Shown: piece after piece, positions 1,233-62,559 of the stretch | How the letters are laid out: each line of letters opens with the position of its first letter | How positions within the stretch are numbered: the first letter of the stretch is position 1 | NCBI GenBank assembly: GCA_051530055.1 | Contig: CM121343.1 | Location: 1,334,389 to 1,398,388 of the forward strand | DNA: 64,000 nt | Reading direction: 5' to 3' | Source of the DNA: Neoechinorhynchus agilis | Taxonomy: Eukaryota; Animalia; Acanthocephala | Program-made: the position numbers and the translations under genes | The notes under the pieces: model-generated | Seen by the model: only the letters and a program-made list of their open reading frames with translations | Databases searched by the model: none | Told to the model about the DNA's origin: nothing

Positions 1233-1415
1233 CCGTAATAGATCTTAAATGCGTACATACGGTCGATTACATTATCGATCGGTTTAGTACCTGTTTGCAC
1301 AGTTAAATTGTCGTTAATTATTCGAACGTTGTTTTTTTGTTTAATAAAACTCTCCAAGTGCAGTACAATTTATTAAACAAAAAAACAAGCTGAACAACAA
1401 GAAGCAAAGACATTC

Positions 1416-2245
1416 ATGTCAAGTACGGTCGAGACAACCATGCTTAAAGTTACCGATAATCTATTGAAACCCGATAGATTACTCACAGTACCAATCGATA
1501 GCAACTCTCATGGAATATTCGGACACTGGTTTACGACTTTTGAGAATTATATCGAAGATCTTGAAATTGATGACAAAGGAAAATTGATTCGTTTGATAAA
1601 CTGCGTTGAATCGAGGGTGTATGCTCAAATCAAATCTTGCAAAGCATATGAGGAGGCAACAAGCTGTTTAAAAAAAGCATACTGCAGAATCACAAATGTC
1701 GTTGCAGCGAGGTATCGTCTAATAAATCGACGACATGCTGAATCAGAGTCCATAAGGGATTACGTGACCGAACTTAGATTATTAGGTAATAATTGGCAGT
1801 TTAACTGCGGATGATGCAAAGGAGGAAGCAATAAGGGAGTCATTAATTGCTGGGCTATGCTCCGACAGAATGAGACAAAAGCTGCTCGAAAAAGCGAATA
1901 TATCCTTAGAGGAAGCGATTCAGCAGGCATATATTATGGAATAAGCTGAAGCCGATTGCCGCTATTTCAATACCAATCAATACAATTACATCGGAAAAAA
2001 TGAAACCAACCATTGCAACTGTATTCAAAACGAAATTATGGCATCACTTAATAACCATCAAACCAGAGCTCCTGAATGTCTAGCAATCAATTACAACAAA
2101 CAAACGTGTTTTTTCTGTGGGAATAGACGCCATCCCAGATCAATATGCCCTGCAAAAGATTCCAAATGTAACAAATGCCAGAAGATTGGTCATTACTCAA
2201 GAGTATGTAGGTCCATGTCAAAGATAGCCGCAATCTCGTTACTAG
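1416..2245 (+). mobile_element. Ty3/Gypsy gag pseudogene
   Basis: N-terminus LKPDRL...HWFTTFENYI, then ARYRLINRR..ES, a frameshift near 1805, and tandem Zn knuckles CFFCGNRRHPRSIC and CNKCQKIGHYSRVC. No pol follows; the sequence fuses directly to an RTE RT. Confidence 0.85.
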
Positions 2246-2249
2246 CAAT

Positions 2250-2832
2250 TGAAGTGCCGAGAGAGACCTAATACGGACGTGCCTCAGAAAGAAGAACTGT
2301 CCCGAGGAATACATAAGGGCAATCCAGATCACGTACGAATGATCTTGCACTTGTGTCAGATGCAGTGTGGGAGAGAAACTATTTTGAGATTATAGTTGGA
2401 TTGCATCACGGATCAGCTCTCAGCCCGTTCCTATCCGTCACGATCATGGATGTGTTGGGTTCTAAGCAAATCGCCCGAAAGCCTCCATGGACACTATTGT
2501 TCGCTGATGACTTGATTGTGACAGCTGAAACACATGAAGCGGCTTAGCGAAGTCTGGAAGGGTGGCGTGAGGCATTGGAGGCCAGCGGTCTTAAGGTAAA
2601 CAGGTTGAAGACGATATGCATGGGACCAGAAACGCTAAAGTTAGAAGGTGTGGATTTGACGATGAGAAGAACAGTGAAATATCTAGGCAGCGAAGTAAAT
2701 ATGACAAATTCCCTCGGACCCGAAATAACTGTTCGTATACAAAGCGGGTGGCTCAAATGGAGGAAGATGTCTAGTGTACTATGCGACAAAAGGATCTCAC
2801 CGAAACTGAAAGGGCGGATGTTCGAGACCGTG
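2250..2832 (+). mobile_element. RTE-clade LINE reverse transcriptase, left part
   Basis: VGLHHGSALSPFL, PPWTLLFADDL, GLKVNRLKT, YLGS, RIQSGWLKWRKMSSVLCDKRISPKLKGRMFETV. LINE homology stops abruptly after FETV at about 2832. Confidence 0.9.
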
Positions 2833-5800
2833 TTTGAACGCTTTCATTGACTGAGTAACTATAATTTCCAACAACTTCAACCTTGAACGTGAACTAACTT
2901 CTCGAAGCCAGGTTGGCGTCGAGTCAACTGATGCTTCTGACACTGTTTCAGCGGTGACAGCTACAACGAATGTGGGACAATGTGGTAAGTACGCTATTGA
3001 TTGTGCTATGTACGCTATTGATGGTGCTGGCGTAAATGGGCATAAAATAGTGTGTTGTACACACATAGAGTTTTGTTGCAAAAAAGAGGTCCGCTGTTTG
3101 GTTCATCCACCATGTCAACAGACAGCAGGTCCAGGGCGCTACGTCCAGAGTAGACCCACCCTCCGAGGCGCAAATTCCGAGGGCACATGAGGAAGCTAGT
3201 GAAAATGCAACAAGTGTGGAACAGCAGGTTCAGGGCGCTACGTCCAGAGTAGACCCGCCCCCCGAGGTGCGAATTCAGGGGCACACGAGGGAACTAGTGA
3301 AGGAAGTGAGGTGGAGTCGATTGAGTTGGAGACTCGAGGGCGACATCTGCATTTGGTGAGAACTGTGGGCATGGCAGTCAGAGACGGAGTCAGGGTACCG
3401 ACTTTACAACTCAAGGAGGGCGAGATGGTACGTGCCCCAGATGGAATGTACTATGTGTACGATGAGGAAACTGAGGAGCTGCACCCCATGCGTCCGGCGG
3501 AGATGGCACTAGTGTCAGGGTTGCCACATTTTCGGGACACCACACATGGGAACGAACAGCTGGGAACTTCGATCAGGTTCGGGCCTCCAGCAACAGAGAC
3601 TGAATCATGTGGTGGGCTGGTTTTCATGTCCTCACGCTCGTGGATTGCTGCCCCGGTGAGCACGCACTGAGGAAAGAGATCCCTGTCTGTTAGCTTCAAG
3701 TTCACATGCCCAAAAACGTTTGAAGGTGTGCCCTCAAAAGAGTTTCTGACGACTTTTGACACGAAGGGATTGCTCGCAACTGAGCAGTTTCTGGCGCGCA
3801 TGAATATCGACCGCGGTACCCTTAACCTGCGACAGTTGTTCCAAGGGGAGCTTAAGGGAGTGACGAGATCACTGCGGTCCGTCGGAGGGTGTTGACCCGC
3901 CACCATTTCCAAGTGAGGGTTTGGGACACCTGGGAGAACGTGCAAACGGTGCTGCTGGTTGTGGAACCGCAGTACGCAGGCTCATTCGTCCTCACGGCGG
4001 ATGAGAGCACGGTCAAGACGAGACGAAATATCGCCTGTGCATTTGATGACGCGACCAATAATATGACAGAGGTAGCATCGGTCACGTGTCACGGGAGGCG
4101 GCTATTGGAAGAAGGAGCAGAACCGACCAGGTTCATTTTCAGATTGGCGGCCCTCTTCGCCGAAACGGTAATGCAGTCTGTGGACCGGAGGTACGCTGTC
4201 CGGTGGTTCATTGGTGGGAATCCACAACGTCAGTCCTTGGCATGATGACTAAACTTTCGTAATCGTATGAGTCACGATATTGATGATGGAATCTACATTA
4301 ACTACGTTCCTTGGTGGCCAATTGGAGAAAGCCTGGCACCGCATGAGCGGTTCCTGCTTTACATCATTAAGTTGGCATATGGAGACCTGCCAACCATGCA
4401 TTGCAATGGTGGAGTTGACCGATCTCCCATCCCATGGCCGGATATTCCCAACATTAGGTATGTGAATGGTCGCAAGAGTGCAGACGTGGCTGAAGTAGAT
4501 CGAATTGGCGATTTGACCACATCAGCCAACATGATCTATGAAACGGCAATGATCTGGTGCCACCGCCTTGCCAGGCAAGACATCTTTTTGCAAGCGGTGC
4601 AAGTGTACACCCAGCTTTACTGGAAGGTAACAGGAAGACCTAGGCACCTGGTGCTGGGGACAACCAACCTCACGATTGCTCTACCGAAAGCTGCAATGCG
4701 TGGGTACCTAATGTGTCCATTGTTGCAGTATCGGGATACGGCTGAGCAACTGGTGTCGGTAGTTGGACCATGTGCAGCGCATGACTTAGTGATTGAGGCG
4801 ACAATGTCCGCACTTCTAATCGGATTCTCGAGTGACATGATTAAATGGTCGCTGGTGGATTACGGTTTACTATACACTCGCCCCCGAGTGGATCAGGCCT
4901 CAGTCATGGCCTCCATGCTGACTGGAACAGGTGGAGGTGGTGGAGGAGGGGGAATCTGGGCTCTAGTGAATAAAAACCTAAATGATCTGGGATATAAGGG
5001 GGCCGTCGGCAAACACCTTCCCACGGTCTTCTCAATCAACTTACCTAGGACATTCCTTCATCAGGCCAAGATAGCGCGTGATTTTAGGATATTGTCCTAC
5101 GACTTACTCGGTTGGTTCCCGGCGTTACCAGAGGGATGTGCGGCACGAGAGTTATGCAAAGACGGAAATATGGTAATGTATTGGGAACTGCCAGATAACA
5201 AACGGTTGAATGCGATAGCTAGCATACATCATGTGGTCGGGGTGGAGTACGCCCTGCTTGTTCAGGAGCGAATGCTGCCAACTGCGACCAGATATACCAC
5301 TGCACCCATATGCGGGACCAGTTGACTACCCACACCAAGTGGTGACCTTGATTACAGGGGATCGCTTTAAGTATGGATTTAGGCCCAATGGTGACTCCCT
5401 CCCAGCGCTGTATCATGTTGACCACGACAGGTTCCATCTGGAATGGTCCCTCACGCACTATTGCCCGAATCTGCATTCTATAGCGCCCATGATGTACATG
5501 AGGATGACTGGGCTCCCGGATGACTATATGGAACAATTCGAACGACAGCAGCTTGACGTGGATCCTCCCCGGCTGAATGCTACGTAGAACGTGGACCTGG
5601 CGATCCGAGCAGTGGAGTTGCAACTGCGGGCTTGCGGAGGACCGCGCTCCCCAGCGAGAACCGAAGAGGTGTGCCAAAGGAGCGCGGCTCACGTAGAGGT
5701 AAGGTGCCAGTGCCGTGTGGTGTAAAGGATCGGGAAGGTCGGAGCGTGAGGTCCGAGGCGGAAACAAAGTTCCTTCAGGCCCGTCAGGAAGAAAGGCGTC

Positions 5801-6080
5801 TGGAGATTGAGAGCATGACCGAGCGGATGGGACGCAGACTAGATCAGTCCTTATGGCAGGGCTCTGAACTTAATGCAGACACCACGAGTTGTTTACTCCC
5901 GTCTGCCATGCTTGAAGTTGAGCAAGACGAACCGCAGTCACGAGCTGCGACAACGGGATTGCAGAGGTTGGCAGCAATGTTCACGGGGCTGACATTGACC
6001 GCGCCGCCCGCTCAAGCGACGGCTGGGCAGCCCACGCAGTCGCCGCAATCCTCGGTTACGTCACCTCCCCCCCTCCCCCC
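2833..6080 (+). pseudogene. Endogenous viral element: degraded totivirus-like (Ghabrivirales-type) capsid ORF, no RdRp
   Basis: Visibly GC-richer than the flanks. One long plus-strand reading path links ORFs 2954, 3311, 3889, 4267, 5231 and 5632 through stops and frameshifts. The segment SANMIYETAMIWCHRLARQDIFLQAVQVYTQLYWK...IALPKAAMRGYLMCPLL resembles the yeast L-A Gag segment SSKVMLSALRKYVNHNRLYNQFYTAAQLLAQIMMK...VNIPKFGSIRGRYPFLL (recalled from memory, not aligned by software). Pro/Ala/Thr-rich C-terminal tail. Confidence 0.65.
3122..3301 (+). repeat. Two-copy 99-bp (33-codon) tandem repeat inside the viral-like ORF
   Basis: acagcaggt(c/t)cagggcgctacgtccagagtagaccc... starts at 3122 and again at 3221. 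It encodes QQVQGATSRVDPP twice. Confidence 0.95.
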
Positions 6081-6415
6081 AAGCAAAACGACCTCAGAAT
6101 ATTAGAAACGAACGAGATGAGGATGCTGCAATGGGCAGCAGGGTACACTCTCAAGTATAAGAAAAGAAATGTGGACATCAGGGAGCTGTTCGGCACTTGC
6201 CACTGTTCAGAGTTGATCGTCCAAAGAAGGTTGCGCTGGCACGATAAAGTTCCGATGTGCGAAGCAGATCACATAATGCGCAGAACGGGAAATCGCCGAC
6301 TAGGAAGGCCGAGGAAAGGATGGGTGGATTGCATCAAACAGGATAAATTGGTTGTCTAGGGAACCACAACTTCTCGAGAGAGAAAAAAATGCGTGAGTGA
6401 GAAGAAGATGCTACA
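6081..6415 (+). mobile_element. RTE-clade LINE, right part and 3' end
   Basis: The frame KQNDLRILETNEMRMLQW...RRLRWHDKV...GRPRKGWVDCIKQD continues the RTE consensus after the 2250-2832 piece. A short gagaagaaga tail lies near 6405. Confidence 0.85.
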
Positions 6416-6870
6416 GACTGAAACGAATCGAATTTAGAAAAAAGCTAAAAAAACAAGGAGATACCTGCAATCAAATGAGATCGAGAACTTACATCAAAGT
6501 CGGAAATGTCGCAGGAACGGAGAAATCTGATCAACGTCCACCCTTTCCAATAGCGGCAGAACCTGAGAATCTAATGGAAACCAAGAGCATTCAACTTGCC
6601 AAGGAGATAAAAAACAAAAGGGCAAGATCGTTGCTGTGTCGTTTGGAAAAAAGTGTAATTCCTAGGTTTATGCTACGCTTACATGGGATCCTTCGATTTA
6701 CATGGAACCCCGTTTTATAATGTAAACTGATTGCTATTAAATAAAAACTCTCTCTGAGTATACAAATTCTGACGTTTTACAATTTTATTAAAACGCAAAC
6801 ACAATAAAGTTCAAGTAAAATAAGACATTCTTACAAAACAAAAACTTTTCTTGGTTTTACAATTGTTTCA
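6415..6870 (+). repeat. Direct duplication of 23035-23495 (retroelement fragment plus start of repeat M1)
   Basis: The sequence agactgaaacgaatcgaatttagaaaaaagc...gggcaagatcg...ggttttacaattg is shared with few differences. Confidence 0.9.
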
Positions 6871-7689
6871 TTCTCGCTGAAAAATCAGTCAGCAATTTTA
6901 GTTCTGAATAAAGTCAGATTGTTTCCGCATTTGAAAATATTACCGCAATTCCAAGGAAAAATTGGTTTCCTTTCTACTTGAACCTGAATATCTCCTCATC
7001 CTGAAAAGTCGAAATGCTCGAATTCATTTTCAATCACTCGAAAGAGCACATCGACGCCGTTCTAGAAAAATTGTAAAGCGAAAAGCGCACTCGATTCGAC
7101 GTTGAGAAAAGAAGCCGTGTAAACACGGAAGAAACACGGTTTTCTTTTAAAGCGTCGATCGAATCGTTTTGCTTTCGTCAGTGAATTACCAACGTTTCAC
7201 ATAATAAATCGTATTTCAGACTGAAAGCGTTGCTTACAATGTATAAGATTTTGTATACGATTGACCCGAAAGCAGAAAGTACTTAAAAATAAAAGTTTGG
7301 AAAAAGCCGAATTGTTGGACTGAAATAAGCTGCTAAATTTTATTTCACTAATGATGTTATGAAGTACTAAAGAACCGCAGTCGCAAAATAAAAATTAAAC
7401 GTTTTTGGTTTTTTGCTTACACTTCGCACTGAGATACTCATAGAAATTGGCTTTATTTGAGTAACTTTAGTTTGTTCTATACTCGGCGATGGACGAACTT
7501 TTAAAGATCTTACAGTCGCACATAAATCGATTTATATCGATGTGTATCCTATTATCACACGGCTGTAAATTTTTGGGCACACAGCCCCAGCCGTGTGATA
7601 ATATGCCACACATCGATATAAGTTACCGGCCGGCCAATCTTCATAAAAAAATAAATCGATTTCGAAACTTTTGTCAATTGAGATTTGCT
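6620..7689 (+). repeat. Dispersed ~1.1-1.2-kb non-coding repeat (here called M1), copy 1
   Basis: Starts gggcaagatcgttgctgtgtcgtttggaaaaaag. Other copies: 10195-11412 (-), 23249-23500 plus 24720-25155 (+, split), 34991-36207 (+), 50237-51060 (+). Confidence 0.92.
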
Positions 7690-8734
7690 CTTTATAAATG
7701 TAACAATCAAAAATAAATAATTTGTAGAATTAAAAGAAATATCGGCGTGCAAAAGCATTTTGTATTGTTGTTTTCGGGTCAAATCGTAATTCTTACGATA
7801 ATTTCAACGAATAATGCCGCCAAAGAATACACACTCAATATCCTGAAGACCGCATGAGAGTCTTCAGGTTTTATCACTTGATTTTATCCTCAAAATCGAA
7901 GCCAGTTCACATCTCGATAAATAATGATCGTATTCTCTTATTTGAATTGAGTAAGTATAATCAATAAATCAAGACAATATTATGTTTGTATAACACTTTA
8001 GATCATTCACACCACCGCTCTGGATCACTCAGCTGCCGCCTATATATTTACTTATCTTAAAGCGATAAAAATAACCGGAAATCACTCCTAAAGTAGAATC
8101 ACATTTGTTGAAAATGTGTACCGGGCGCATTTAACAAAATGTAATTATGAAAGTCCCCATAAAATGTAATCAATGTAGCGACCTATTTCACAAATACATT
8201 TCGTCTCTTTGCAAGTTAAAGGGCTGCCAGAAGAGAATCCATCGACATCTTAAAAATCTCTTTAAGTTTTTGCCTTCATTTCTGACATTTCCAGCATTTA
8301 ATTCTGGTGTTCCGGTTGGAAAATAATAAATGTTTATTGGTTTTTCGCGATGGTGCACCAATTACTTTCCCGCAAATAATTATATTTTAACAGTGAAAAA
8401 TCCGTTCAAATAGCAGCACTACATGAATAATCGATAACCACGTTCTTGGAAGAAGATCGTGAACCTCGTCAGTTCTAGCCTTACCAAAACGGTCGTATTT
8501 TCGAGAGAATTTACGAGATCTCCAATAACTAACAAAAGTGATAACTAATCGACAAGAAAAATATTTAATCCTTATACACGAGGTTCTGTTCCTGATGAAG
8601 AACACCCTCTTTATTCCAAAACTGCTATATAAGCTGCGCACAGCACCTTTTTTTAGACATAAGTATAAGCTGGCAAGGTGAAAGCCTCTCTCGAGAAAAT
8701 TTTAAATATTTAGCTGTCGGACGAGGCCTGACGT

Positions 8735-9090
8735 CAAGCGTCCTTGCTTGTGTCGTCCGGCTTTTTGGGTATCCGAAAAGCAACCAATATTTCTCTGCTG
8801 GCTTATTTGAGATCGTATGAATCAAGCCGCAAAATACTTCAATCCTTTCTTGGCGAGAATTACACTTTGGATGAAGATTTCGTGAAAGCTCTTAATCTTT
8901 GTGTGGAGATTCAGGCAGCAAGCAGGTACGTTTTAAGAAATTGAGACGAATCACTGGTGATCAGAGGGCAGGAGCATTCCTCCTACAAAACACTAGTCTG
9001 GTTGTGCAACGAGGAAACGCTGCATCCGTCTTTTCGACCGTTACACCAGGACAGCAGCTTTGTGATCCAGAGCGGTGGTGTGAATGATTT
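8735..9090 (+). mobile_element. CRE-like non-LTR retrotransposon remnant (RT thumb fused to REL-endonuclease C-terminus)
   Basis: SLLVSSGFLGIRKA resembles the LPVxxGGLGIR thumb. AFLLQNTSLVVQRGNAASVFST matches the CRE-type terminal Q(R)IS.A.QRGNAA motif. Confidence 0.65.
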
Positions 9091-9124
9091 CATGACAAAG
9101 AAAAAATGTTCTTTAGAAAAAAAA

Positions 9125-10060
9125 GAATAATTCAAAGAGCTATCATGAACTTCACTAATTCAAGACATAAGTGTTGCCTGCAGGTTCAGATCTCAAATTC
9201 CTATCTGCCTAGAAATCCCCGAAGAAACTGAGGATGGTTCTATTTAGAGCTCCCTGCTGTAGTTAAGTAGCCGTGAACGGTGGCGCTCAGTGAAGTATTA
9301 ACATTGATGCGATTGTTCGTGTGAGTTAGTTGTGATTAATGGTGGGGTTTGTTATTCGAAGAATAAAAGTGTTAACATTCAACCATCAGAAGGTACAACT
9401 TACGGCGACGAAATCCACGAAGGTGTCTCTTCAATGATGTTACAATTTCTCATGGAGAAACATCAAGAATTAATGGAGATGATGATAAAGCGGAAAGGGA
9501 CAAGTAAAATTAATGGAAGAGAATCAGAAAAACAAGGGTAGCGATATTCAGGTTTCTCGCTTCTTCGATCCGAAAAATGAGACGTGAAATGATCACGATG
9601 CGCAATTAGTCAACCATCTCGACTACTGAGGCGTAAGGTCACAGGATAGGAAAAAAGCAAAGATTTATGCTACAATCAGGAAAAAGTTGGAGAAATAGGA
9701 AACCTGAAAATCGAAGGAAACATGTTTTTCCCCGATTTGGCGAAATTTATTAAATTATTTAAAGTAAAAGGGTCAATTCTAGTCGATTAGATTAATTTAC
9801 AACATCCTGAAGAAGACTCACAAGCGAGTCGAAATATTGATCCTTTTACTTTAAATAATTTAATAAATTTCGCCAAATCGAGGAAAAAATAGGAAACCGA
9901 ACGATTGTTCTTTTGATGAATTGCAAAACACGAAAGCAAAGCTTTACACAGAGGAACCGCACCAGGTTCCTGGCCGATATCGATTCAGTAACGCAAGAAT
10001 GAAACAAGGACATAAATTTGACGAATGGGTTACAGATTTGTGCAAAGCATGGAAGGAGGT
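9125..10060 (+). repeat. Segment with an inverted copy at 51058-51961
   Basis: Identical 69-aa ORFs at 9332-9541 (+) and 51546-51755 (-). The second copy has a ~34-nt deletion. Confidence 0.92.
9807..9838 (+). ncRNA. Hammerhead-ribozyme-like motif (PLE pLTR type) in the loop of a ~53-bp inverted repeat
   Basis: CTGAAGA-A-GACTC-acaagc-GAGTC-GAAA-TATT. Flanking arms are 9725-9777 and 9836-9888. A second copy lies on the minus strand near 51275-51312. Confidence 0.65.
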
Positions 10061-10194
10061 TCATTTTGCTCAAGCCCGAAGAACAGGATAAGTCTACTTT
10101 AGGCGTAATTGAGTAAGTATAATCAATAAACCAAGACAACATTATGTTTGTATAACACGTTAGATCATTCACACCGCCGCTCTGGATCACTCAC

Positions 10195-11412
10195 AAGCAA
10201 ATCAAAATTGACAAAACTTTCGAAATCGATTTATTTTTTATGAAGATTGGCCGGCCGGTAACTTATATCGATGTGTGGCATATTATCACACGGCTGGGGC
10301 TGTGTGCCCAAAAATTTACAGCCGTGTGATAATAGGATACACATCGATATAAATCGATTTATGTGCGACTGTAAGATCTTTAAAAGTTCGTCCATCGCCG
10401 AGTATAGAACAAACTAAAGTTACTCAAATAAAGCCAATTTCTATGAGTATCTCAGTGCGAAGTGTAAGCAAAAAAATCAAAAACGTTTAATTTTTATTTT
10501 GCGACTGCGGTTCTTTAGTACTTCATAAAATCATTAGTGAAATAAAATTTAGCGGCTTATTTCAGTCCAACAATTCGGCTTTTTCCAAACTTTTATTTTT
10601 AGGTACTTTCTGCTTTCCGGTCAATCGTATACAAAATCTTATACATTGTAAGCAACGCTTTCAGTCTGAAATACGTTTTATAAATTTAAAAGAAAACATT
10701 TTTAATCATAACATAATAAAGTACAAAACGTGTAATCACCCCCGTCTGTAAAATTGGAGCTTCTCTCCTTTCTCGGCTGTCGCTGTCACGCCAACAACAT
10801 TGCCTCGTAGTACTGCGAGCGAAATATTACGCGAAACGTTGGTAATTCACTGACGAAAGCAAAACGATTCGATCGACGCTTCAAAAGAAAACCGTGTTTC
10901 TTTCGTGTTTACACGGCTTCTTTTCTCAACGTCGAATCGAGTGCGATTTTCGCTTTACCACTTTTCTGGAACGGCGTCGATGTGCTCTTTCGGGTGATTG
11001 AAATGAATTCGAGCATTTCGACTTTTCAAGGTGAGGAGATATTCAGGTTCAAGTAAAAAGGAAATCAATTTTTCCTTGGAACTGCGGTAATATTTTGAAA
11101 TGCGGAAATAATCTGACTTTATTCAGAATTAAAATTGCTGACTGATTTTTTAGCGAAAATGAAACAATTGTAAAATCTAGAAAAGTTTTTGTTTTGTGAG
11201 AATGTTTTATTTTGCTTGAACGTTATTGTGTTTGTGTTTTAGAGAAATTGTAAAACGTCAGAATTTGTATACTCAGAGAGAGTTTTCATTTAATAGCAAT
11301 CAGTTTACATTTTAAAACGGAGTTCCATGTAAATCGAAGGATCCCATGTAAGCGTAGCATAAACCTAGGAATTGCGCTTTTTTCCAAACGACACAGCAAC
11401 GATCTTGCCCTT
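10195..11412 (-). repeat. Repeat M1, inverted copy
   Basis: Reverse complement of 6620-7689, with an extra ~130-bp internal segment that is also present at 24960-25150 and 35570-35730. Confidence 0.92.
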
Positions 11413-11689
11413 TTGACCATCAACTCGAAAAAGACGGAATTCTTGACGATTCCGCATGTCGCGCATACAGTCTCTGGCGAAGGGCCGAATGGCGTTTAGC
11501 AATTAAAACAGATAGAGCGGTATGTCTATCTGGGAGCTGTCGTTCCTGAGGTGAGTGCGGATGTCAGCCGACGGAGAGCTAAAGCTTGGAGAGCAATGGG
11601 GCAACTTAAGCCACTCTTTGACAGTGAGTCTTTGCCGGATGAACTCCGTTCGGAGCTGTTCAGGGCTCTAATTGAGAGCATTCTCATGA
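11413..11689 (+). mobile_element. LINE RT C-terminal fragment (mirror copy 34712-34988, minus strand)
   Basis: LTINSKKTEFL...YVYLGAVV...DVSRRRAKAWRAMGQLKPLFDS...RSELFRALIESILM, which is the region downstream of YADD. Confidence 0.8.
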
Positions 11690-11785
11690 CCTGATTTTAA
11701 GAGACGCGAATTGCCCGCATAACAGGACTGCTGTCGTGTACTTTAGGTCCCTTGCGGAGTCTAATTCTATCTGACGGGCTAATAC

Positions 11786-13100
11786 CTACGGTGCAACGTA
11801 GGAAAGTACCGTTGCATACATACAATCGATAAGTGTCACCCAATCCTCGATACTTAAGGAAGGGGGTTCGCATTTCTCGTGTAATAAACTCGCGGTTAGT
11901 TTAGTCGCTTCTTTGAGTGGGATGTTGGTGAATAATGATTTTATGTCTGCCGTCATAAACCATCGGTTTTTAGGGTCCACTGTCCTGATAATATTCCCTA
12001 GTTGTGCTCACCTCATTTTTGAAGAGAACACTGTGGTGCATTGTTTAATCGGTCTTTCAAGATCTCAGATATTCCATTCTTTAAAACGCGAATTCGCATT
12101 TTGATGCTCTCAGTGTTGTTGAAACATTCACACTTTGAATAAATGGATCGCTTTTTTAAATAAACCATATCAACAAAATCGCAATGTTTAGAAAGTAAGT
12201 CAGGCGATAGTTCAATCGTTTTTGACTGTTGCATATTAGTGAAGCTGGCGTTACCATCGGCCTTCAACATCCTGTATTGGTCGACGTTAAGTTTCTTGAT
12301 CTCGATCACAAAAGTTGGGCCGTTCATCAATGTACGAGCCGGAGATTTGTAGGATTGATTCTAACAAAGCATTAATCTTTTTTGATAAACTGTTATCGAA
12401 GCACATATAACTGAGTATAATTGGAAGTTATTGAATGATGGGTTTGTTAATCTTCGGAAGTAGATACAGGATTGTATAATTGTTGGCCTATAGGAGGCGG
12501 GTTCAATGGGTACCTAAGGGAAATGTTAAAGTTGGACTCTCTGTTTTGGGTTGAGTCTTTGACCATCCCTTAAATTTATCTCAGCTCACAAGTCGCAAAT
12601 CCGCGTTGTTATAATCTTCAACATCCACCGCCATTAAAATACTCCTTTGTTAGGTTTGCAAATCCTTATTGCAGACACTTTCTTAAGGGGCCTCGTAATA
12701 ATTATTGAGATCGTTTATATATAAACACGTTTTATTAATTTAAGAAGAACGATCCATACACTTGCCAGCATCTATCTTTGCTGAGGTGTCTGGATGTCGG
12801 ATGTTGAGGCAGGGAGGTGGGACTTGTCTTTGAAGGAGTTTTACAGGAGAATGACCGATTGGGAGTCTTTCCTTGTTCTCCGGTTTCCAGCTTTGCTATC
12901 ATAGGCAATTACGGAGCTCGTCAGATCTGGGTTTGTGTTTATCAATAGTTCTGCATCACATCTAATATTGATACCTCGTATATTCTTCATAAAGTAGTCT
13001 GATACTTTGCTTAGCAAACCCAATTCACTTGGGGAGAACCTATGCAAGCTTGAGGCCTTACAAATCTCTGCATCCAACATTATAAAAAAGAACAAAGCAA
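11786..13100 (-). mobile_element. Penelope-like element RT and N-terminal fragments (mirror copy ~33310-34615, plus strand)
   Basis: FMTADIKSLFTNIPLKEA is the PLE-type RT motif. FSPSELGLLSK is a PLE N-terminal helix also seen at 55520. Confidence 0.8.
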
Positions 13101-13489
13101 ACTTTAGCTCAAAACTACTTGTCAGTGACCTATAAAAAGTCCATGGAAAAGGCCATACAACGCCGGGAGTACGAGCGGACATGCGGCCCGCTTATCCGAG
13201 CCATACAATACCAAATAATATATGACAAAACCTTTTTAGTTGACTGATGAGATAAGACTTCCTCGCGAAATATTTGATAACTCGAATCCACAGTACTGAA
13301 GCGCAAAATCATCTCACGAAAGGGGTAGTGAGTACTGAAACGAAAACAAATTATGGATCGAAGCAGAAAGCAAATGACGAACATGTAGAAAACGGATTGC
13401 AGTCAGCACGCAACAGTCAGTTTTCAAACCAAAAAGGGACTCATTGAACCAACACCAAACCCATACCCTTCCATTCTGGATAGCTCGCA

Positions 13490-14154
13490 TGGGGAAATAC
13501 GACAATGATGAAAGTAAAATCGACGAAGTTCGGCAAAACATTACAGAACGTTTTCCAGATAGTCATGGAAGAGAATTCATCGGTAGCCAGCCGGTATCAA
13601 TGACAGTTAATAATATTGAAACATTGCGGCAGTTAAATTATCGAGTAAGCTAGAAGGCCGACGGAACCCGGTACTTGTTTTTCATTCGAGAGAAAAACGA
13701 AATTTATATGATCGACAGGCGCAATTCAATCTTCAAAGTTACCAATCTTACGTTTGTGACGAACCGTGGCACTACAGATCATTTTCGTCAGATTTTGCTT
13801 GATGGAGAGATGGTGGAAGATATCGTGGTGGTACACAGATTCGTCGATTCCTTATATTTGACATCCTGGCATTCAACGGGCATTTTGCTGTAAGGAACTT
13901 AATTATGTCAAACGATCGGAACTCATATGGAGGGAGATTATGCAGCCTCGATGTCGTGCTATTATCGAATACAAAACTATAGACCGAAGTCGAGAGCCTT
14001 TTCGGATTCAAAAGAAGGATTTTGCGATCTCAGGTTCAATAAAAAAATTTTGAATGAAATGTTCCAAAATGACCTCCTTCAAGCAGACGGTCTTAAATTT
14101 CAGCCCGTTGATATGCCGTATATTTTTGGCACCTTCGACAAGCTGCTAAAATAA
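13490..14154 (+). pseudogene. RNGTT: mRNA capping enzyme guanylyltransferase-domain pseudogene, copy A
   Basis: FIGSQPVSM...YRVS*KADGTRYLFFI...YMIDRRNSIFKV...LLDGEMVED matches metazoan FPGAQPVSM..YKVSWKADGTRY..FMIDRDNSVF..LLDGEMI. TGG has become TAG just before motif I (KADG at 13654-13665), and frameshifts follow. Confidence 0.9.
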
Positions 14155-14889
14155 GGCATCAATTGGTAAATTTCAATTATGTATGGGTGTTAAATTTTCT
14201 TTTGCCAGTAATAATCACAAAAATTCATCTTATCGTTTATAGAAAAATCCAAAACCCGTCAGATCAATAGTATGAATGATTTTTGGACCATAAAAACTAA
14301 AATAAAGGATTTATGTTTTACCTCTTAGAATAAACTGAAAATAATTTAGTATAAAATTGAGTGGTTTTCTTTGTGAAACAATAGATTTTTCAAGAAAGTC
14401 AATCGAATTGCATTTGTGATTAATATTGAAAATATGCGTTTTTAAAGGCGCTAAGAGATAAACAAATGGCGAAGTAAAGGATAAAATATTATTATTTTTG
14501 ATTGCACTAAAGATCAAGAATTCGACAAAATGTATGAGCGCGAATTTTTTAGTTAAAAAGTTCTTTGTACAAATAGTTCATCAATTCTGACATTCATAAG
14601 TTTCCATTTCCAGTCGATGAAATTTTGGTTGGAATAGTGATCACAAGGGGTTAAAGAGGTAAGTGAAGGTTTTTGTAAATTACGCCATTCAGCCAGCAAT
14701 TTAATTCAAAATATCCATAAAGTAGTAACAAATCCGCCGTTTTTCAATATTAGTGATAACCATAAGACTCTTAATGATGACCATGGAATCTAGTAACCAT
14801 GAAAGGGTTACGAAAAAGTGTTAATGGCATGGACATCCTGTTATTTAGGACTATTTCACGCGAGTTAGCCGTTGATATATAAAGACAAT

Positions 14890-15830
14890 CTCTTACTTAT
14901 CTATAAAAGAAGTATCATTATTAAATCTTTTCTACAGAGAGAAAATTCTTTCAAAATGATATAAACTACCTCGGTAATTGATTCAATTTGTTATTTAGGT
15001 CTTCACCAGATAGAGAATATTTTATTACGGACGTTTGGTACCTCTTCGGTTTTATCATCAGTTCCACAAACAAGGGGTACATTAGTTGTTCTTGTTAAAC
15101 GCAACATTCGACGCTGCTGCCCTTCTCTGCATCTTGGTCCGCGTGTGTTCAGCCAATCTCGTCTTAAAATTCCGGCTTGTCTGACCGATTTATTTGCGCC
15201 CTCTTTTCTGTCTCCTTGTATTTTCGGGAAATGAGATTTTCTATCCTCATGAACGGTCGAAAGTAAAATTCGCATTTTATTTTCATACCGCTGCTAGTGA
15301 TTGTCTTCGAGATTTTGTGTCGATAAATGTTGGTCTGTGAACAACTTTCCGTCAATCCAATTCGCATTTCTGTTCGATTCGGAATCACAGTCGTTTCGCT
15401 TCGACTGGTTTATCTCCCTTGGCCTTTCTTGGATATCCCAACTTGCTAAAAATTCGCTCTTATCGCTAGAGTTCGTATCTGAGGCATTTCACACTGCAGA
15501 GGCTGAAGGTTGGACGCACAATGCCATTGAAAATGTCCTTTTTTGTTCTTGTTATGGGCACTAACCCAAAGTGAATAATTGTTCATTTCCGTGGACTTTT
15601 TATAAACTGAAGTGATCATTCGTGTATCCAGAAATGGTAATCCCCTATTCAGGTCAGGCCTAGTTCAAAAATAACGATTGAAAGTCTCAAAGAAGTTTGC
15701 GATTGCGGACTTGTTGCTGAGCAATGAGAAGCACAAATGAAAGTACCACAAAGTTCGATTGGTCGCAATAATTTCTTGGATAATGATGTATGAGAATTTC
15801 ATCCATCTGAAATTGGAATCAAAGAATAAT
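14890..15830 (-). mobile_element. PLE RT-thumb/linker fragment within a 4-copy module
   Basis: PFLDTRMITSVYKKSTEMNNY resembles the PLE thumb LPFLD...VYRKPT.T..Y. Copies: ~30830-31510 (-, internally deleted), ~40780-41710 (-), ~54020-54780 (+). Confidence 0.7.
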
Positions 15831-22260: not shown

Positions 22261-23500
22261 AAAACTTACAATCAAAGATGCCGAGGCCAAATCGCGCAAC
22301 CACCAAGCTCGTTCCCTGCGACATGGACGATTGCCCTGTTACAACTCAAATATGCGTCTCAGCTACTTGGGCAGCAGGCCGGAAATTTATTTGTGGTTTC
22401 TGTGCAGCCGCCTTGCTCAAACCTTGTTCTCCGGTTTCCCCCTTCCCAATAAGTACGCAAACCCTAACCGCTCCCAAACCCCACCTAATCTGCCATCACC
22501 GTGCAACCATTCTCCTTTACAAAGCCTCCGATCCCACATCAACACCCCTTCAAAAACCAGTTCTACCTCCCTTGCCTTCAATATCCGTCATCCATACACC
22601 GTTTAGCAAAAAATTTTCCATAAATAAAAAACGTGTTTATATAATCACGAGAATGTGAATTCCAGGGCTCATAGCGACCAATTAAGACGCTTAATATCAA
22701 GCCATTCACTGATAGGTTAAAACAAAGAAGCGAAAGAGAAAACGGAATGGAGGCCGGAAGCAATAGATAGAGATTCCAGGAAATGACAAAATATGAAAAA
22801 ACGACAGCATCCACTTCTATCAAAAACCAACCAAGAAGAAATTAACGAAATCGAAAACGTCCTGGGAGACCTTATGAAGAATATCTTAAGGGGTAGGAAG
22901 AGGCGAAACTTAGTGGCACATTGAAGATTCCAATGGAACTCAGCAGAAAACTTTACTTGAAGACAACTAAAAGAGAAACCAAGCGCTTAAATCCAAAGCG
23001 AACTCAACAAATCGCAGCGCAAGAAAAGGCTCAGAAAGACTGAAACGAATCGAATTTAGAAAAAAGCTAAAAAAACAACAACAAGGAGATACCTGCAATC
23101 AAATGAGATCGAGAACTTACATCAAAGTCGGAAATGTCGCAGGAACGGAGAAGTCTGATCAACGCCCACATCGCCAATAGCGGCAGCACCTGAGAATCTA
23201 ATGGAAACCAAGAGCATTCAACTTGCCAAAGAGATACAAAAAACAAATGGGCAAGATCGTTGCTGTGTCGTTTGGAAAAAAGCGTAATTCCTAGGTTTAT
23301 GCTGCGCTTACGTGGGATCCTTCGATTTACATGGAACTCCGTTTTAAAATGTAAACTGATTGCTATTAAATAAAAACTCTCTCTGAGTATACAAATTCTG
23401 ACGTTTTACAATTTTATTAAAACGCAAACACAATAAAGTTCAAGTAAAATAAGACATTCTTACAAAACAAAAACTTTTCTAGGTTTTACAATTGCTTCAT

Positions 23501-24720
23501 CTACTCTGAAAAATTTGCACCTCTGACCCAGGAATGGATTGAGGACGCAATAGGCCAGGTGGTATTTGGGATAGATTGAAATAGCTGGCTAAGAAAATTT
23601 TGAAGTCGCCTTGATGTAAACAAAAACAACCTACGAAACTTAACTGACGATGATTGGTTGAAAATTACGATACTTGAAATAGAGAACAACGCTCAGATGG
23701 AACTGACGACAATCGCAAATCGTCATATCAAAAAACTACGGAATTTCGCGGAAGGTCATATTTTCGTTTCATCAGATAATGTGACGAATGTGATCAATTG
23801 ATCCGGTATTCTTCTACCAAAGAATGTCTTGGAGTTTCATTCCTTTGGAACTGATTTCATTCTTACTACCAGAGTCAACAGACTTCAGTGCAGAATGAAA
23901 ATGAAAGAGATGGTATATGATTTGTCTAACAAGATTGACAACATACCTTTATGGAAGTTTGAAAGGGGATATACTATGGCGGTCCAAAGGAATAATAGTT
24001 TTCATTGGAATGTAACGAGGAGTATACGCGACGGATCAATTTTGAGAGGGCTGAAATCCCTGCGAGGAACGTAAACCGTAGGGACAGGACTACGATGGAG
24101 GCCATTTTTATTAAACAATTAAACACGTTCACGCATAATAAGGCCGATTACACCCTCCACCTACGCGTTCCGCCTGATATATTCACGAGGGGGGCAAAGG
24201 ATTCAACAGTGACCGTGTGAATGTATTTTAGATTCTGAAGAAGGCCAGCGAGCAGGCCGAAAATTCACGTTGATAAATTACAATCTTTCTTCGCCGAGTC
24301 CTACAATAAATGTGGAACTTATTTTCAGAAGCTGTATCAGGACCTATACGTTACATGTGGCGTAAAGGAGTGTGGTGAATGTGCCAAGTGGAAACTATTG
24401 AATGTAGGTTATCGGGTTGGCACGATTGTTATGTCTAAAGACCATTCGAAAATTGTTAAGCAGGGTAGCTCACAAACAATCCGCGAAGACAGCAAAGGGG
24501 TTGTTTATAAGCAGAAATGGGCGGTGTTACTTGTCCCAAGAATCGAGACGATTACGACAAGACGGGCATGCGATAGATGCGGAAAGTACCATAAGCGTTA
24601 GGAAATGTAAAACAGCGGTTACGGAGCGATTCGACAAAGAAGACGAGGAGAGCCAAATAAAAGTTACTTTTGTCTTCCCCACAAAACAAGAGCTGGTGGC
24701 TAATCAAACTATAACACGAT
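23501..24720 (+). mobile_element. PLE fragments (GIY-YIG C-terminus, pLTR-like segment) inserted into an M1 copy
   Basis: M1 stops at ~23500 and resumes at ~24720. NFERAEIPARNVNRRDRTTMEAIFIK is a PLE endonuclease tail, and KGVVYK occurs at ~24495. Confidence 0.7.
24230..24286 (+). ncRNA. Hammerhead-ribozyme-like motif (type I layout) just after a PLE endonuclease stop codon
   Basis: Stem I agatt/aatct; core CTGAAGA (24235-24241); stem II GGCC/GGCC; GAAA (24259-24262); stem III AATT/AATT around a near-palindromic tcacgttga loop. Confidence 0.65.
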
Positions 24721-25792
24721 TTTAGTTCGGAATAAAGTTAGATGATTTCCGCAGCAATTCCACGGAAAAATTGATTTCCTTCTTACTTCAACCTGAATAT
24801 CTCCTCAGCTTGAAGAGTCGAAATGCTCGAATTCATTTTCAACCACTCGAAAGAGCACACCGACGCCGTTCTAGAAAAATGGTAAAGCGAAAAGCGCACT
24901 CGATTCGACGTTGAGAAAGGAAGCCGTGTAAACACGGAAGAAACACGGTTTTCTTTTGAGGCGTCTATCGAATCGTTTTGTTATCGTCAGAGAATTACCA
25001 AAGTTTCGCGTAATATCTCGCTCGCAGTACAGCGAGGCAATGCTGTTAGCGTGATAGCGACAGCCGAGGAAGGAGAGAAGCTCCAATTTTACGGACGGTG
25101 GTGATTTCACGTTTTGTACTTTATTATGTTATGATTAAAAAATGTTTTCTTTTAAATTTATAATACGTATTTCAGACTGAAGGATTTTCTTAAAATGGAC
25201 TGGTTTTCTTTTTTAAAGATAGAATTATTGAAAAAGTTAATCTTCCTTCAATTCTTATTTCGAATGTCTACGATTGATCGGAAAGCAGAAAGTACTCAAA
25301 ACTATAGAAGGTTTCGAAGAATTTATATTGTAAGACTTGTAAATTTGATGATCGTTATCCAGCCCGATTTCCATCTTCATTGAATAACATGCAAGTTTAA
25401 AACTTCTTAAACCCTTAGGCCACATGTGAGGCCGACTGTAAGGTGCATGTGTCCATCGGCGGCAATGCAAGATGGGAAATACAATGCGAAACAAATGCTC
25501 GGACACGTGCTTTCGCCGAAGACGGCATATGCTCCAAACATTTCATCCTAGGACAATTCGCGAAAAAAACGAAATTTGCTATGGTCACGAAGGCGTTTTA
25601 CGGAAAAGGTGCTGTTGTGGAGACCAAAGAATTCTGGGAAGCATTCAATGCCAAGAAAGCAGAGCATTGTAAGAAAATCAAAGAAGGTATTGATAAATAA
25701 CTAGACGGAGCAATGATCGATTTTCTAGAGTTGTTCTTCGATGAAAAAACTTCGACTTTACCTCGTCTAAGAAAAACATACGAGGGGATTAT

Positions 25793-31151: not shown

Positions 31152-34100
31152 ACCGTTCATGAGGATAGAAAATCTCATTTCCCGAAAATACAAGGAGACA
31201 GAAAAGAGGGCGCAAATAAATCGGTCAGACAAGCCGGAATTTTAAGACGAGATTGGCTGAACACACGCGGACCAAGATGCAGAGAAGGGCAGCAGCGTCG
31301 AATGTTGCGTTTAACAAGAACAACTAATGTACCCCTTGTTTGTGGAACTGATGATAAAACCGAAGAGGTACCAAACGTCCGTAATAAAATATTCTCTATC
31401 TGGTGAAGACCTAAATAACAAATTGAATCAATTACCGAGGTAGTTTATATCATTTTGAAAGAATTTTCTCTCTGTAGAAAAGATTTAATAATGATACTTC
31501 TTTTATAGATAAGTAAGAGATTGTCTTTATATATCAACGGCTAACTCGCGTGAAATAGTCCTAAATAACAGGATGTCCATGCCATTAACACTTTTTCGTA
31601 ACCCTTTCATGGTTACTAGATTCCATGGTCATCATTAAGAGTCTTATGGTTATCACTAATATTGAAAAACGGCGGATTTGTTACTACTTTATGGATATTT
31701 TGAATTAAATTGCTGGCTGAATGGCGTAATTTACAAAAACCTTCACTTACCTCTTTAACCCCTTGTGATCACTATTCCAACCAAAATTTCATCGACTGGA
31801 AATGGAAACTTATGAATGTCAGAATTGATGAACTATTTGTACAAAGAACTTTTTAACTAAAAAATTCGCGCTCATACATTTTGTCGAATTCTTGATCTTT
31901 AGTGCAATCAAAAATAATAATATTTTATCCTTTACTTCGCCATTTGTTTATCTCTTAGCGCCTTTAAAAACGCATATTTTCAATATTAATCACAAATGCA
32001 ATTCGATTGACTTTCTTGAAAAATCTATTGTTTCACAAAGAAAACCACTCAATTTTATACTAAATTATTTTCAGTTTATTCTAAGAGGTAAAACATAAAT
32101 CCTTTATTTTAGTTTTTATGGTCCAAAAATCATTCATACTATTGATCTGACGGGTTTTGGATTTTTCTATAAACGATAAGATGAATTTTTGTGATTATTA
32201 CTGGCAAAAGAAAATTTAACACCCATACATAATTGAAATTTACCAATTGATGCCTTATTTTAGCAGCTTGTCGAAGGTGCCAAAAATATACGGCATATCA
32301 ACGGGCTGAAATTTAAGACCGTCTGCTTGAAGGAGGTCATTTTGGAACATTTCATTCAAAATTTTTTTATTGAACCTGAGATCGCAAAATCCTTCTTTTG
32401 AATCCGAAAAGGCTCTCGACTTCGGTCTATAGTTTTGTATTCGATAATAGCACGACATCGAGGCTGCATAATCTCCCTCCATATGAGTTCCGATCGTTTG
32501 ACATAATTAAGTTCCTTACAGCAAAATGCCCGTTGAATGCCAGGATGTCAAATATAAGGAATCGACGAATCTGTGTACCACCACGATATCTTCCACCATC
32601 TCTCCATCAAGCAAAATCTGACGAAAATGATCTGTAGTGCCACGGTTCGTCACAAACGTAAGATTGGTAACTTTGAAGATTGAATTGCGCCTGTCGATCA
32701 TATAAATTTCGTTTTTCTCTCGAATGAAAAACAAGTACCGGGTTCCGTCGGCCTTCTAGCTTACTCGATAATTTAACTGCCGCAATGTTTCAATATTATT
32801 AACTGTCATTGATACCGGCTGGCTACCGATGAATTCTCTTCCATGACTATCTGGAAAAAGTTCTGTAATGTTTTGCCGAACTTCGTCGATTTTACTTTCA
32901 TCATTGTCGTATTTCCCCATGCGAGCTATCCAGAATGGAAGGGTATGGGTTTGGTGTTGGTTCAATGAGTCCCTTTTTGGTTTGAAAACTGACTGTTGCG
33001 TGCTGACTGCAATCCGTTTTCTACATGTTCGTCATTTGCTTTCTGCTTCGATCCATAATTTGTTTTCGTTTCAGTACTCACTACCCCTTTCGTGAGATGA
33101 TTTTGCGCTTCAGTACTGTGGATTCGAGTTATCAAATATTTCGCGAGGAAGTCTTATCTCATCAGTCAACTAAAAAGGTTTTGTCATATATTATTTGGTA
33201 TTGTATGGCTCGGATAAGCGGGCCGCATGTCCGCTCGTACTCCCGGCGTTGTATGGCCTTTTCCATGGACTTTTTATAGGTCACTGACAAGTAGTTTTGA
33301 GCTAAAGTTTGCTTTGTTCTTTTTTATAATGTTGGATGCAGAGATTTGTAAGGCCTCAAGCTTGCATAGGTTCTCCCCAAGTGAATTGGGTTTGCTAAGC
33401 AAAGTATCAGACTACTTTATGAAGAATATACGAGGTATCAATATTAGATGTGATGCAGAACTATTGATAAACACAAACCCAGATCTGACGAGCTCCGTAA
33501 TTGCCTATGATAGCAAAGCTGGAAACCGGAGAACAAGGAAAGACTCCCAATCGGTCATTCTCCTGTAAAACTCCTTCAAAGACAAGTCCCACCTCCATGC
33601 CTCAACATCCGACATCCAGACACCCCAGCAAAGATAGATGCTGGCAAGTGTATGGATCGTTCTTCTTAAATTAATAAAACGTGTTTATATATAAACGATC
33701 TCAATAATTATTACGAGGCCCCTTAAGAAAGTGTCTGCAATAAGGATTTGCAAACCTAACAAAGGAGTATTTTAATGGCGGTGGATGTTGAAGATTATAA
33801 CAACGCGGATTTGCGACTTGTGAGCTGAGATAAATTTAAGGGATGGTCAAAGACTCAACCCAAAACAGAGAGTCCAACTTTAACATTTCCCTTAGGTACC
33901 CATTGAACCCGCCTCCTATAGGCCAACAATTATACAATCCTGTATCTACTTCCGAAGATTAACAAACCCATCATTCAATAACTTCCAATTATACTCAGTT
34001 ATATGTGCTTCGATAACAGTTTATCAAAAAAGATTAATGCTTTGTTAGAATCAATCCTACAAATCTCCGGCTCGTACATTGCCCAACTTTTGTGATCGAG

Positions 34101-36314
34101 ATCAGGAAACTTAACGTCGACCAATACAGGATGTTGAAGGCCGATGGTAACGCCAACTTCACTAATATGCAACAGTCAAAAACGATTGAACTATCGCCTG
34201 ACTTACTTTCTAAACATTGCGATTTTGTTGATATGGTTTATTTAAAAAAGCGATCCATTTATTCAAAGTGTGAATGTTTCAACAACACTGAGAGCATCAA
34301 AATGCGAATTCGCGTTTTAAAGAATGGAATATCTGAGATCTTGAAAGACCGATTAAACAATGCACCACAGTGTTCTCTTCAAAAATGAGGTGAGCACAAC
34401 TAGGGAATATTATCAGGACAGTGGACCCTAAAAACCGATGGTTTATGACGGCAGACATAAAATCATTATTCACCAACATCCCACTCAAAGAAGCGACTAA
34501 ACTAACCGCGAGTTTATTACACGAGAAATGCGAACCCCCTTCCTTAAGTATCGAGGATTGGGTGACACTTATCGATTGTATGTATGCAACGGTACTTTCC
34601 TACGTTGCACCGTAGGTATTAGCCCGTCAGATAGAATTAGACTCCGCAAGGGACCTAAAGTACACGACAGCAGTCCTGTTATGCGGGCAATTCGCGTCTC
34701 TTAAAATCAGGTCATGAGAATGCTCTCAATTAGAGCCCTGAACAGCTCCGAACGGAGTTCATCCGGCAAAGACTCACTGTCAAAGAGTGGCTTAAGTTGC
34801 CCCATTGCTCTCCAAGCTTTAGCTCTCCGTCGGCTGACATCCGCACTCACCTCAGGAACGACAGCTCCCAGATAGACATACCGCTCTATCTGTTTTAATT
34901 GCTAAACGCCATTCGGCCCTTCGCCAGAGACTGTATGCGCGACATGCGGAATCGTCAAGAATTCCGTCTTTTTCGAGTTGATGGTCAAAAGGGCAAGATC
35001 GTTGCTGTGTCGTTTGGAAAAAAGCGCAATTCCTAGGTTTATGCTACGCTTACATGGGATCCTTCGATTTACATGGAACTCCGTTTTAAAATGTAAACTG
35101 ATTGCTATTAAATGAAAACTCTCTCTGAGTATACAAATTCTGACGTTTTACAATTTCTCTAAAACACAAACACAATAACGTTCAAGCAAAATAAAACATT
35201 CTCACAAAACAAAAACTTTTCTAGATTTTACAATTGTTTCATTTTCGCTAAAAAATCAGTCAGCAATTTTAATTCTGAATAAAGTCAGATTATTTCCGCA
35301 TTTCAAAATATTACCGCAGTTCCAAGGAAAAATTGATTTCCTTTTTACTTGAACCTGAATATCTCCTCACCTTGAAAAGTCGAAATGCTCGAATTCATTT
35401 CAATCACCCGAAAGAGCACATCGACGCCGTTCCAGAAAAGTGGTAAAGCGAAAATCGCACTCGATTCGACGTTGAGAAAAGAAGCCGTGTAAACACGAAA
35501 GAAACACGGTTTTCTTTTGAAGCGTCGATCGAATCGTTTTGCTTTCGTCAGTGAATTACCAACGTTTCGCGTAATATTTCGCTCGCAGTACTACGAGGCA
35601 ATGTTGTTGGCGTGACAGCGACAGCCGAGAAAGGAGAGAAGCTCCAATTTTACAGACGGTGGTGATTACACGTTTTGTACTTTATTATGTTATGATTAAA
35701 AAATGTTTTCTTTTAAATTTATAAAACGTATTTCAGACTGAAAGCGTTGCTTACAATGTATAAGATTTTGTATACGATTGACCGGAAAGCAGAAAGTACC
35801 TAAAAATAAAAGTTTGGAAAAAGCCGAATTGTTGGACTGAAATAAGCCGCTAAATTTTATTTCACTAATGATTTTATGAAGTACTAAAGAACCGCAGTCG
35901 CAAAATAAAAATTAAACGTTTTTGATTTTTTTGCTTACACTTCGCACTGAGATACTCATAGAAATTGGCTTTATTTGAGTAACTTTAGTTTGTTCTATAC
36001 TCGGCGATGGACGAACTTTTAAAGATCTTACAGTCGCACATAAATCGATTTATATCGATGTGTATCCTATTATCACACGGCTGTAAATTTTTGGGCACAC
36101 AGCCCCAGCCGTGTGATAATATGCCACACATCGATATAAGTTACCGGCCGGCCAATCTTCATAAAAAATAAATCGATTTCGAAAGTTTTGTCAATTTTGA
36201 TTTGCTTGTGAGTGATCCAGAGCGGCGGTGTGAATGATCTAACGTGTTATACAAACATAATGTTGTCTTGGTTTATTGATTATACTTACTCAATTACGCC
36301 TAAAGTAGACTTAT
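31152..36314. repeat. Right arm of the 5.2-kb inverted repeat
   Basis: Reverse complement of 10088-15257. By eye there are only scattered substitutions and one ~8-nt indel near 34080. Confidence 0.97.
32255..32919 (-). pseudogene. RNGTT: Guanylyltransferase pseudogene, copy B (mirror of A)
   Basis: Same stop and frameshifts as copy A; ITELFPD here versus ITERFPD in A. Confidence 0.9.
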
Positions 36315-62535: not shown

Positions 62536-62559
62536 TGCTTCAAAAAGCCCATGATAAAA

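Follow-up and report, generated by a model that had tools for sequence, protein, structure and literature searches.

Genes of RNA viruses can become fixed in a germline with the help of a long interspersed nuclear element (LINE), as in the L1-mobilised bornavirus-like elements, which carry a poly(A) tail and a target duplication and contain no LINE sequence. Other viral fossils resemble double-stranded RNA (dsRNA) viruses of the toti-like group, and such fossils are common in animals (PMC10636211, in part). Those of arthropods and yeasts are capsid-derived and frameshifted and occur as several independent copies per genome (PMC10636211 and PMC13756089, both in part). LINEs are also known to form chimeras by template switching (U6-L1, U6-RTE, and tripartite elements), in which the pieces are co-oriented and directly joined, with the foreign RNA upstream of the LINE 3' part (PMC4476161 and PMC2104539, both in part). 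Here, we describe a locus in a 64,000-nucleotide stretch of the acanthocephalan Neoechinorhynchus agilis (GenBank assembly GCA_051530055.1, contig CM121343.1, positions 1,334,389 to 1,398,388 of the forward strand; hereafter, the window), in which bases 2833 to 6078 are almost certainly a decayed capsid gene of a toti-like (Ghabrivirales) dsRNA virus, cut before its RNA-dependent RNA polymerase (RdRp) and lying between two halves of a LINE.

The insert and the closest toti-like viruses share a homologous N-terminal capsid region at 33-34% identity. However, the insert is a broken host DNA copy that lacks the RdRp and sits on a long end branch. Likewise, the insert is capsid-derived and frameshifted as are the fossils of arthropods and yeasts, whereas it shows no signs of domestication and is housed in a LINE with collinear halves. 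In contrast to the known LINE template-switch chimeras, the viral RNA is here ~3.1 kb long, the same LINE resumes upstream after a 40-nt skip, and an outer target duplication was not found. The same sandwich is seen in retrocopies mediated by long terminal repeat (LTR) elements and enclosed in discontinuous LTR elements, where it is explained by two template switches (PMC5131818, in part), but at this locus a viral cargo lies in a non-LTR carrier. Unlike the L1-mobilised bornavirus-like elements, the insert has neither a tail nor a target duplication and is enclosed by LINE sequence. No LINE-virus-LINE sandwich was found in the literature searched; subscription papers and supplements lay outside that search and may hold cases. 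Similarly, for acanthocephalans neither a virus of this clade nor a toti-like element turned up in the literature searched, the coverage of which was incomplete. Fossils of Mononegavirales have been noted before in the acanthocephalan Pomphorhynchus laevis (PMC12548735, in part).

Six-frame reading of the locus reveals that the reverse transcriptase (RT) frame of the LINE (...PKLKGRMFETV) breaks off at 2832 and picks up as KQNDLRILETNEMRMLQW at 6081. An initial annotation of the window, made from the letters alone, had read this as one interrupted LINE, and the reading was confirmed by an unrelated, unnamed LINE protein (P0033), which is collinear with both halves (2554-2838, E 3e-21; 6042-6275, E 2e-9). 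The upstream half (2254-2832, plus strand) is a 5'-truncated RTE-type RT gene with a match to RVT_1 (E 1.4e-4) and contains two frame changes and two stops. The downstream half (6079-6406, plus strand) belongs to the same family, restarts 40 bases past the left breakpoint, and ends in a short GAA-type tail. The clade name RTE is tentative and follows from motifs rather than from an RT tree. Breakpoints, depth, and junctions were derived from contigs of five public runs (X1-X5, of which X2-X5 come from a second study) aligned to the window. In contigs of all five runs, other copies of the LINE have 2832 (or a nearby base) joined to 6079-6082, and exactly 40 letters separate 2832 and 6079 in three contigs of other copies (X2 and X3). 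Because other copies hold these 40 bp between the breakpoints, the insert stands in place of 40 bp in a single LINE copy. The gap corresponds to 13 1/3 codons, in agreement with the 13-14 codons originally estimated to be missing. Both flanks of the insert are of one LINE family, with ~13 codons missing at the join.

The insert and the LINE have the same orientation, and the pieces are directly joined. As had been noted from the letters, no target duplication is visible; we found no duplication of 3 bp or more around 2833-6078, and the insert lacks its own tail. In X1, the LINE halves reach multi-copy depths of 3715-9441 (3715-5951 in the upstream half), whereas the insert stays flat at ~90-100, the single-copy level. 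The GC content, described at first as raised in the insert, is 0.54 in 3121-6078, compared with 0.47 for the LINE halves and 0.39 for the window as a whole. The stop of the open reading frame (ORF) 5632-6105, at 6103-6105, lies in LINE sequence and is not viral, again as proposed. The LINE itself had been drawn to 6415; it ends instead at ~6406, with other copies diverging behind 6406-6407, and a different repeat begins at 6415 (6415-6885; a further copy at 23037). Most non-retroviral viral fossils have lost the traces of their entry. At this locus, the two LINE breakpoints are placed to the single base, which makes the route of entry testable.

The viral identity of the insert was examined with a HMMER scan (phmmer) of 1.84 billion representative proteins, using the 358-aa ORF at 4249-5322 as the query. 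At E values up to 0.001, 24 proteins were matched, comprising the window's own protein, one from the same species (P0003), and a further 22. The polyprotein of Hubei toti-like virus 5 ranks first among the relatives and is matched in its N-terminal part (E 1.1e-39, 34% identity). RdRP_4 is present in 8 of the 23 non-self matches and always lies downstream of the matched region. The names of 20 matches were looked up (nine viral, one same-species copy, and ten unnamed or hypothetical), and no cellular or transposon name was among them. One relative is named 'capsid protein', a prediction (PMC8973213, in part). In tblastn searches, the toti-like relatives map to 3542-5524 in three successive frame blocks, and no match to an RdRp region was found anywhere in the window with these relatives. 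HMMER, the placement of RdRP_4, tblastn, and the predicted fold described below thus agree with the original assignment of the insert to a dsRNA-virus capsid ORF truncated before the RdRp. Word-based protein searches missed all viral relatives, which were found by the full HMMER scan alone. Pfam gave no family for five insert pieces and, for a sixth (3203-3667), only MelC1 below the cut-off; sequence searches of the PDB with the insert protein gave no match, and a viral-contig scan of the sequence found nothing.

A 21-row tree was built with FastTree after exclusion of near-duplicates within clusters, of P0002 and P0003, and of the short P0020 and P0024. In it, the insert is sister to Hubei toti-like virus 5 with a Shimodaira-Hasegawa-like support of 98 and an end branch of 1.37. 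Members of this lineage have been found in samples of crab, insect, mollusc, and oomycete origin. The NCBI taxonomy leaves Hubei toti-like virus 5 unclassified; the virus has been placed beside the 'ditoliviruses', which are bipartite and have a second segment matching the N-terminus of Hubei toti-like virus 5 (PMC10868552, in part). Names of the type 'putative RNA dependent RNA polymerase' attached to the oomycete-associated P0008 cluster and P0012 look wrong; these proteins lack RdRP_4 and match the capsid region.

For the fold, a 489-residue read-through with X at two stops was aligned with 27 relatives. The resulting capsid model had a predicted local distance difference test score (pLDDT) of 77.7 and a predicted template modelling score (pTM) of 0.80. 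A fold from the single sequence was unusable (pLDDT 31.5), so that the model depends on the alignment and shows that the family is a capsid family. When the model was compared with the PDB by VIA-align, the first nine matches were all dsRNA-virus capsids (Z 13.6-6.1), after which Z fell to 3.8; the best were 3j3i (Z 13.6, root mean square deviation 4.9, 347 residues aligned) and 1m1c (Z 12.5, 5.5, 331). Foldseek ranks 1-10 in the PDB were all dsRNA-virus capsids, although the template modelling (TM) scores were just 0.32-0.45, and the top five rows of BFVD had TM scores of 0.77-0.81 to the model. Overall, capsids head both structural searches of the PDB, and the fold predicted for the insert is the one shared by the capsids of L-A, chrysovirus, Omono River virus, and Giardia virus.

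The insert was first described as a degraded ORF of ~3.2 kb. It is indeed degraded, but it is not one ORF, as a 140-bp element and a 99-bp tandem duplication lie inside it. The first part (2833-2980, plus strand), where no protein homology was found, likely represents the viral 5' end or leader together with the start of the capsid ORF, and its junction with the LINE is bridged by an X1 contig (2780-2987) with 0 differences. At 2981-3120 lies a multi-copy element with TGT...ACA ends and no assigned strand (X1 depth of 6631 in the bin 3009-3120), bordered by target duplications of 5 bp that differ at one position (2976-2980 and 3121-3125). In other copies of this element, the sequence preceding 2979-2981 and that following 3120-3121 is different. 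X2 and X5 contain contigs that pass directly from 2975 to 3121, omitting 145 bases; these contigs may stem from a related copy or from an allele that lacks the element. The element, which was overlooked initially, as were the related viral copies elsewhere, is a later insertion into the viral sequence and appears to be solo-LTR-like. It is followed by the tandem duplication (3122-3301, plus strand), the copies of which are ~88% identical.

The conserved core of the capsid gene (3542-5524, plus strand), delimited by tblastn, phmmer, the fold, and a stop map, is broken by stops at 3668, 4243, and 4246 and by frame changes near 3887 and near 5290-5320; one more frame change, near 3260-3300, lies upstream of the core. 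Behind the core, an open low-complexity frame (5557-6078, plus strand; X1 depth of ~91-100) ends in a C-rich tract and is likely the viral linker that follows the capsid. Homology to viral proteins covers only 3542-5524, with one match extending to 5728 (local tblastn), so that a viral origin of its two ends is inferred. The window's own protein, annotated as a 424-aa hypothetical protein of N. agilis, crosses a frame change by means of a 46-nt intron, and because the viral homology continues through this intron in the original frame, we read the gene model as a gene-finder artefact. A domesticated toti-like gene was considered and rejected, given the three stops and two frame changes of the core, and the insert is no working protein gene. 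The only slippery-type heptamer, at 3709, was not accepted as a frameshift signal, the site being inside the capsid. Decay by stops and frame changes, and a host repeat nested between its own target duplications, mark the insert as a non-retroviral endogenous viral element resident in host DNA.

At least two related viral copies are present elsewhere in the genome, with identities of ~90% and ~80%. The former, of single-copy depth in X1, spans 3231-3619 or more, with 38 differences and 17 gap letters in 374, and is visible only for the 5' part (~3230-3790 in X1); an X2 contig that, as judged by depth, has one of its indels skips the 140-bp element. The latter matches 4643-4853 and 5287-5508. 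Of its 32 listed differences, 26 fall at third codon positions (P 3.5e-8), and 26 of the 29 affected codons are silent. Differences mostly at silent sites indicate divergence under protein selection, and the copy is probably a separate integration of a second viral strain; less simply, it may be a maintained host gene at the other locus. A 3350-nt X2 contig of this copy extends ~2.36 kb past 5508 and might reach the linker or the RdRp, which would allow the virus to be placed more precisely; X1 and X2 contigs of this copy stop at an identical upstream point. A second host 'hypothetical protein' on another contig (P0003) is a fragment of the same capsid family (86% identity over 66 residues), implying that gene counts of N. 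agilis include viral fossils. Whatever the mechanism of entry, these copies speak for repeated past infection of the acanthocephalan germline by a toti-like virus lineage.

How the capsid gene came to lie in the LINE may be explained by a double template switch of the LINE RT, from LINE RNA to viral plus-strand RNA and back to LINE RNA in one step, which in our estimate has about an even chance of being correct. The RT would begin at the LINE tail (~6406), copy up to 6079, and jump into the viral mRNA at an internal C-rich site, ~3.1 kb from the viral 5' end. It would then copy to or near that end (2833), return to the LINE RNA 40 nt beyond its point of departure, and halt at 2254, an ordinary 5' truncation. 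The copy would have been passed on via the germline and decayed, with the 140-bp element landing later. Template switching predicts co-orientation, direct joins, and the lack of a tail and a duplication, all of which are seen, and, in many cases, copying to the foreign 5' end, which is suggested by length. Without a duplication or a tail of its own, the insert is unlike a separate target-primed insertion. Upstream of 3955, it holds ~326 codons' worth of sequence when the nested element is left out and 293 when the tandem copy is also left out, and the corresponding N-termini of the relatives measure 127-305 residues (except in P0010, which is N-terminally short), which fits copying to the viral 5' end. 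Hubei toti-like virus 5, a 7505-nt contig with a 2461-aa ORF, has only ~120 non-coding bases.

Precedents for the individual steps are available. LINEs of the RTE and L2 clades are reported to generate U6 copies exclusively in the form of template-switch chimeras and to switch onto U5 internally (PMC4476161, in part); double template switches are likewise documented (PMC2104539, in part). Moreover, the depth ratios of the LINE (~40-100, which are not copy numbers) suggest, at 1-3 kb per copy, that the family makes up well under 1% of the genome, the size of which is 46.2 Mb (PMC12690905). The family is therefore a small target for a chance insertion, favouring a template switch.

Several points weigh against this mechanism. 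Double switches are rare, with one tripartite element compared with 33 bipartite ones in the set described (PMC2104539, in part). The small-target argument is weakened in that the window is repeat-dense and the case was chosen for lying in a LINE, and co-orientation is just a 2-fold argument. A small deletion without a duplication is equally typical of double-strand-break repair. The LINE halves have 5 lesions in ~295 codons and the viral core 5 in ~660 (one-sided P 0.17), so that lesion density leans, not significantly, toward the LINE being older. No joint of the ~80% copy to the 3' half of this LINE was seen among the matches listed, which suggests that the virus group entered the genome also without that flank. 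The outer flanks of the LINE are different repeats that do not match each other, and the original target site may thus be lost. On the left is a broken gag-like region of an LTR retrotransposon (1377-2253, plus strand; zf-CCHC E 4.9e-4; weak matches to Retrotran_gag_2 and PNMA), which is cut at 2253; other copies of it continue differently behind that base, and this continuation is absent from the window (a 21-mer of it has 0 matches). Around the whole LINE, only 4-bp candidates for a target duplication, at chance level, were found. As the left-flank element is not resumed on the right and only such candidates are present, a single insertion event is not proven. At the right junction, at most two C's are ambiguous.

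Several of the same observations suit capture by repair, in which a double-strand break in an existing LINE copy was filled with viral cDNA or RNA and 40 bp were lost by resection, so that the LINE was the target and not necessarily the copier. This explanation is a serious one, somewhat short of an even chance in our view. It accounts for a deletion without a duplication and agrees with the slightly higher lesion density in the LINE, with the repeat-dense region, and with the presence of other viral copies, one of them apparently lacking the 3' flank of this LINE. However, it needs a chance landing in a small LINE family in the sense orientation and leaves unexplained why the insert starts near what appears to be the viral 5' end. 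Overall, the viral fossil, resolved to the base, is real and its layout unusual, with template switching only slightly more probable than repair capture as its mechanism.

A broader version of template switching, in which the RTE LINE captured ~3.1 kb of dsRNA-virus mRNA via two template jumps repeatedly, or the chimera spread, making RTE elements a recurring carrier into regions that produce PIWI-interacting RNAs (piRNAs), seems rather unlikely; if it held, the ~90% copy would share the LINE junction. Less likely still is a secondary sandwich, in which the viral piece first integrated elsewhere and a duplication or rearrangement of the DNA then brought it into this LINE copy, with the ~90% copy as its sister. 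The single-copy depth of that copy over at least 3231-3619, the X2 contig with the shared indel that skips the 140-bp element, and the mismatched outer flanks of the LINE would fit such a history, but neither junction shows host flanking DNA that came along with the viral piece, and the ~90% copy is seen for the 5' part only.

The initial annotation proposed long reads or PCR to confirm both junctions. In the contigs, the left junction is bridged in X1, and the right one is crossed by a single X1 contig with 30 letters beyond it, one short of the 31-letter criterion. The runs X2-X5 contain pieces of the insert with 0-1 differences, and no piece bridging either junction was seen in them among the matches listed. 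An assembly chimera, with a viral contig wrongly joined to a repeat, is very improbable: although the junction-spanning contigs listed come only from X1, which may be the source of the assembly itself, the stops, the frame changes, and a host repeat that inserted later and left a target duplication indicate residence in host DNA, the X1 depth is flat over the insert, four runs of the second study hold pieces of it, and an exact 40-bp collinear gap is atypical of misjoins.

If template switching by the LINE took place, a non-LTR element would join LTR elements as a carrier enclosing viral RNA, and it would be explained how a virus can be endogenised by a LINE that copies mostly its own RNA. N. 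agilis retains piRNAs with a ping-pong signature (PMC12256650, in part), so that an antiviral small-RNA role of the insert can be checked with existing kinds of data.

The remainder of the window is rich in other repeats. An inverted duplication of 5171 bp with 99.7% identity (10088-15257 and 31152-36314) is either very recent or an assembly artefact. A dispersed non-coding repeat of ~1.1 kb occurs in both orientations at 6615-7689, 10196-11415, 34986-36206, 50237-51060, and 23244-25197 and contains a 90-bp palindrome at 7532-7621. Decayed RT fragments of other, distantly related LINE families lie at 57269-57849, 52440-52736, and 60291-60365. At 1-1244 on the minus strand, broken frames with cysteine-histidine knuckle-like motifs resemble LINE ORF1 by eye and have no Pfam match. 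Finally, a tandem array with a period of ~95 bp occupies 62553-64000 and runs past the end of the window.

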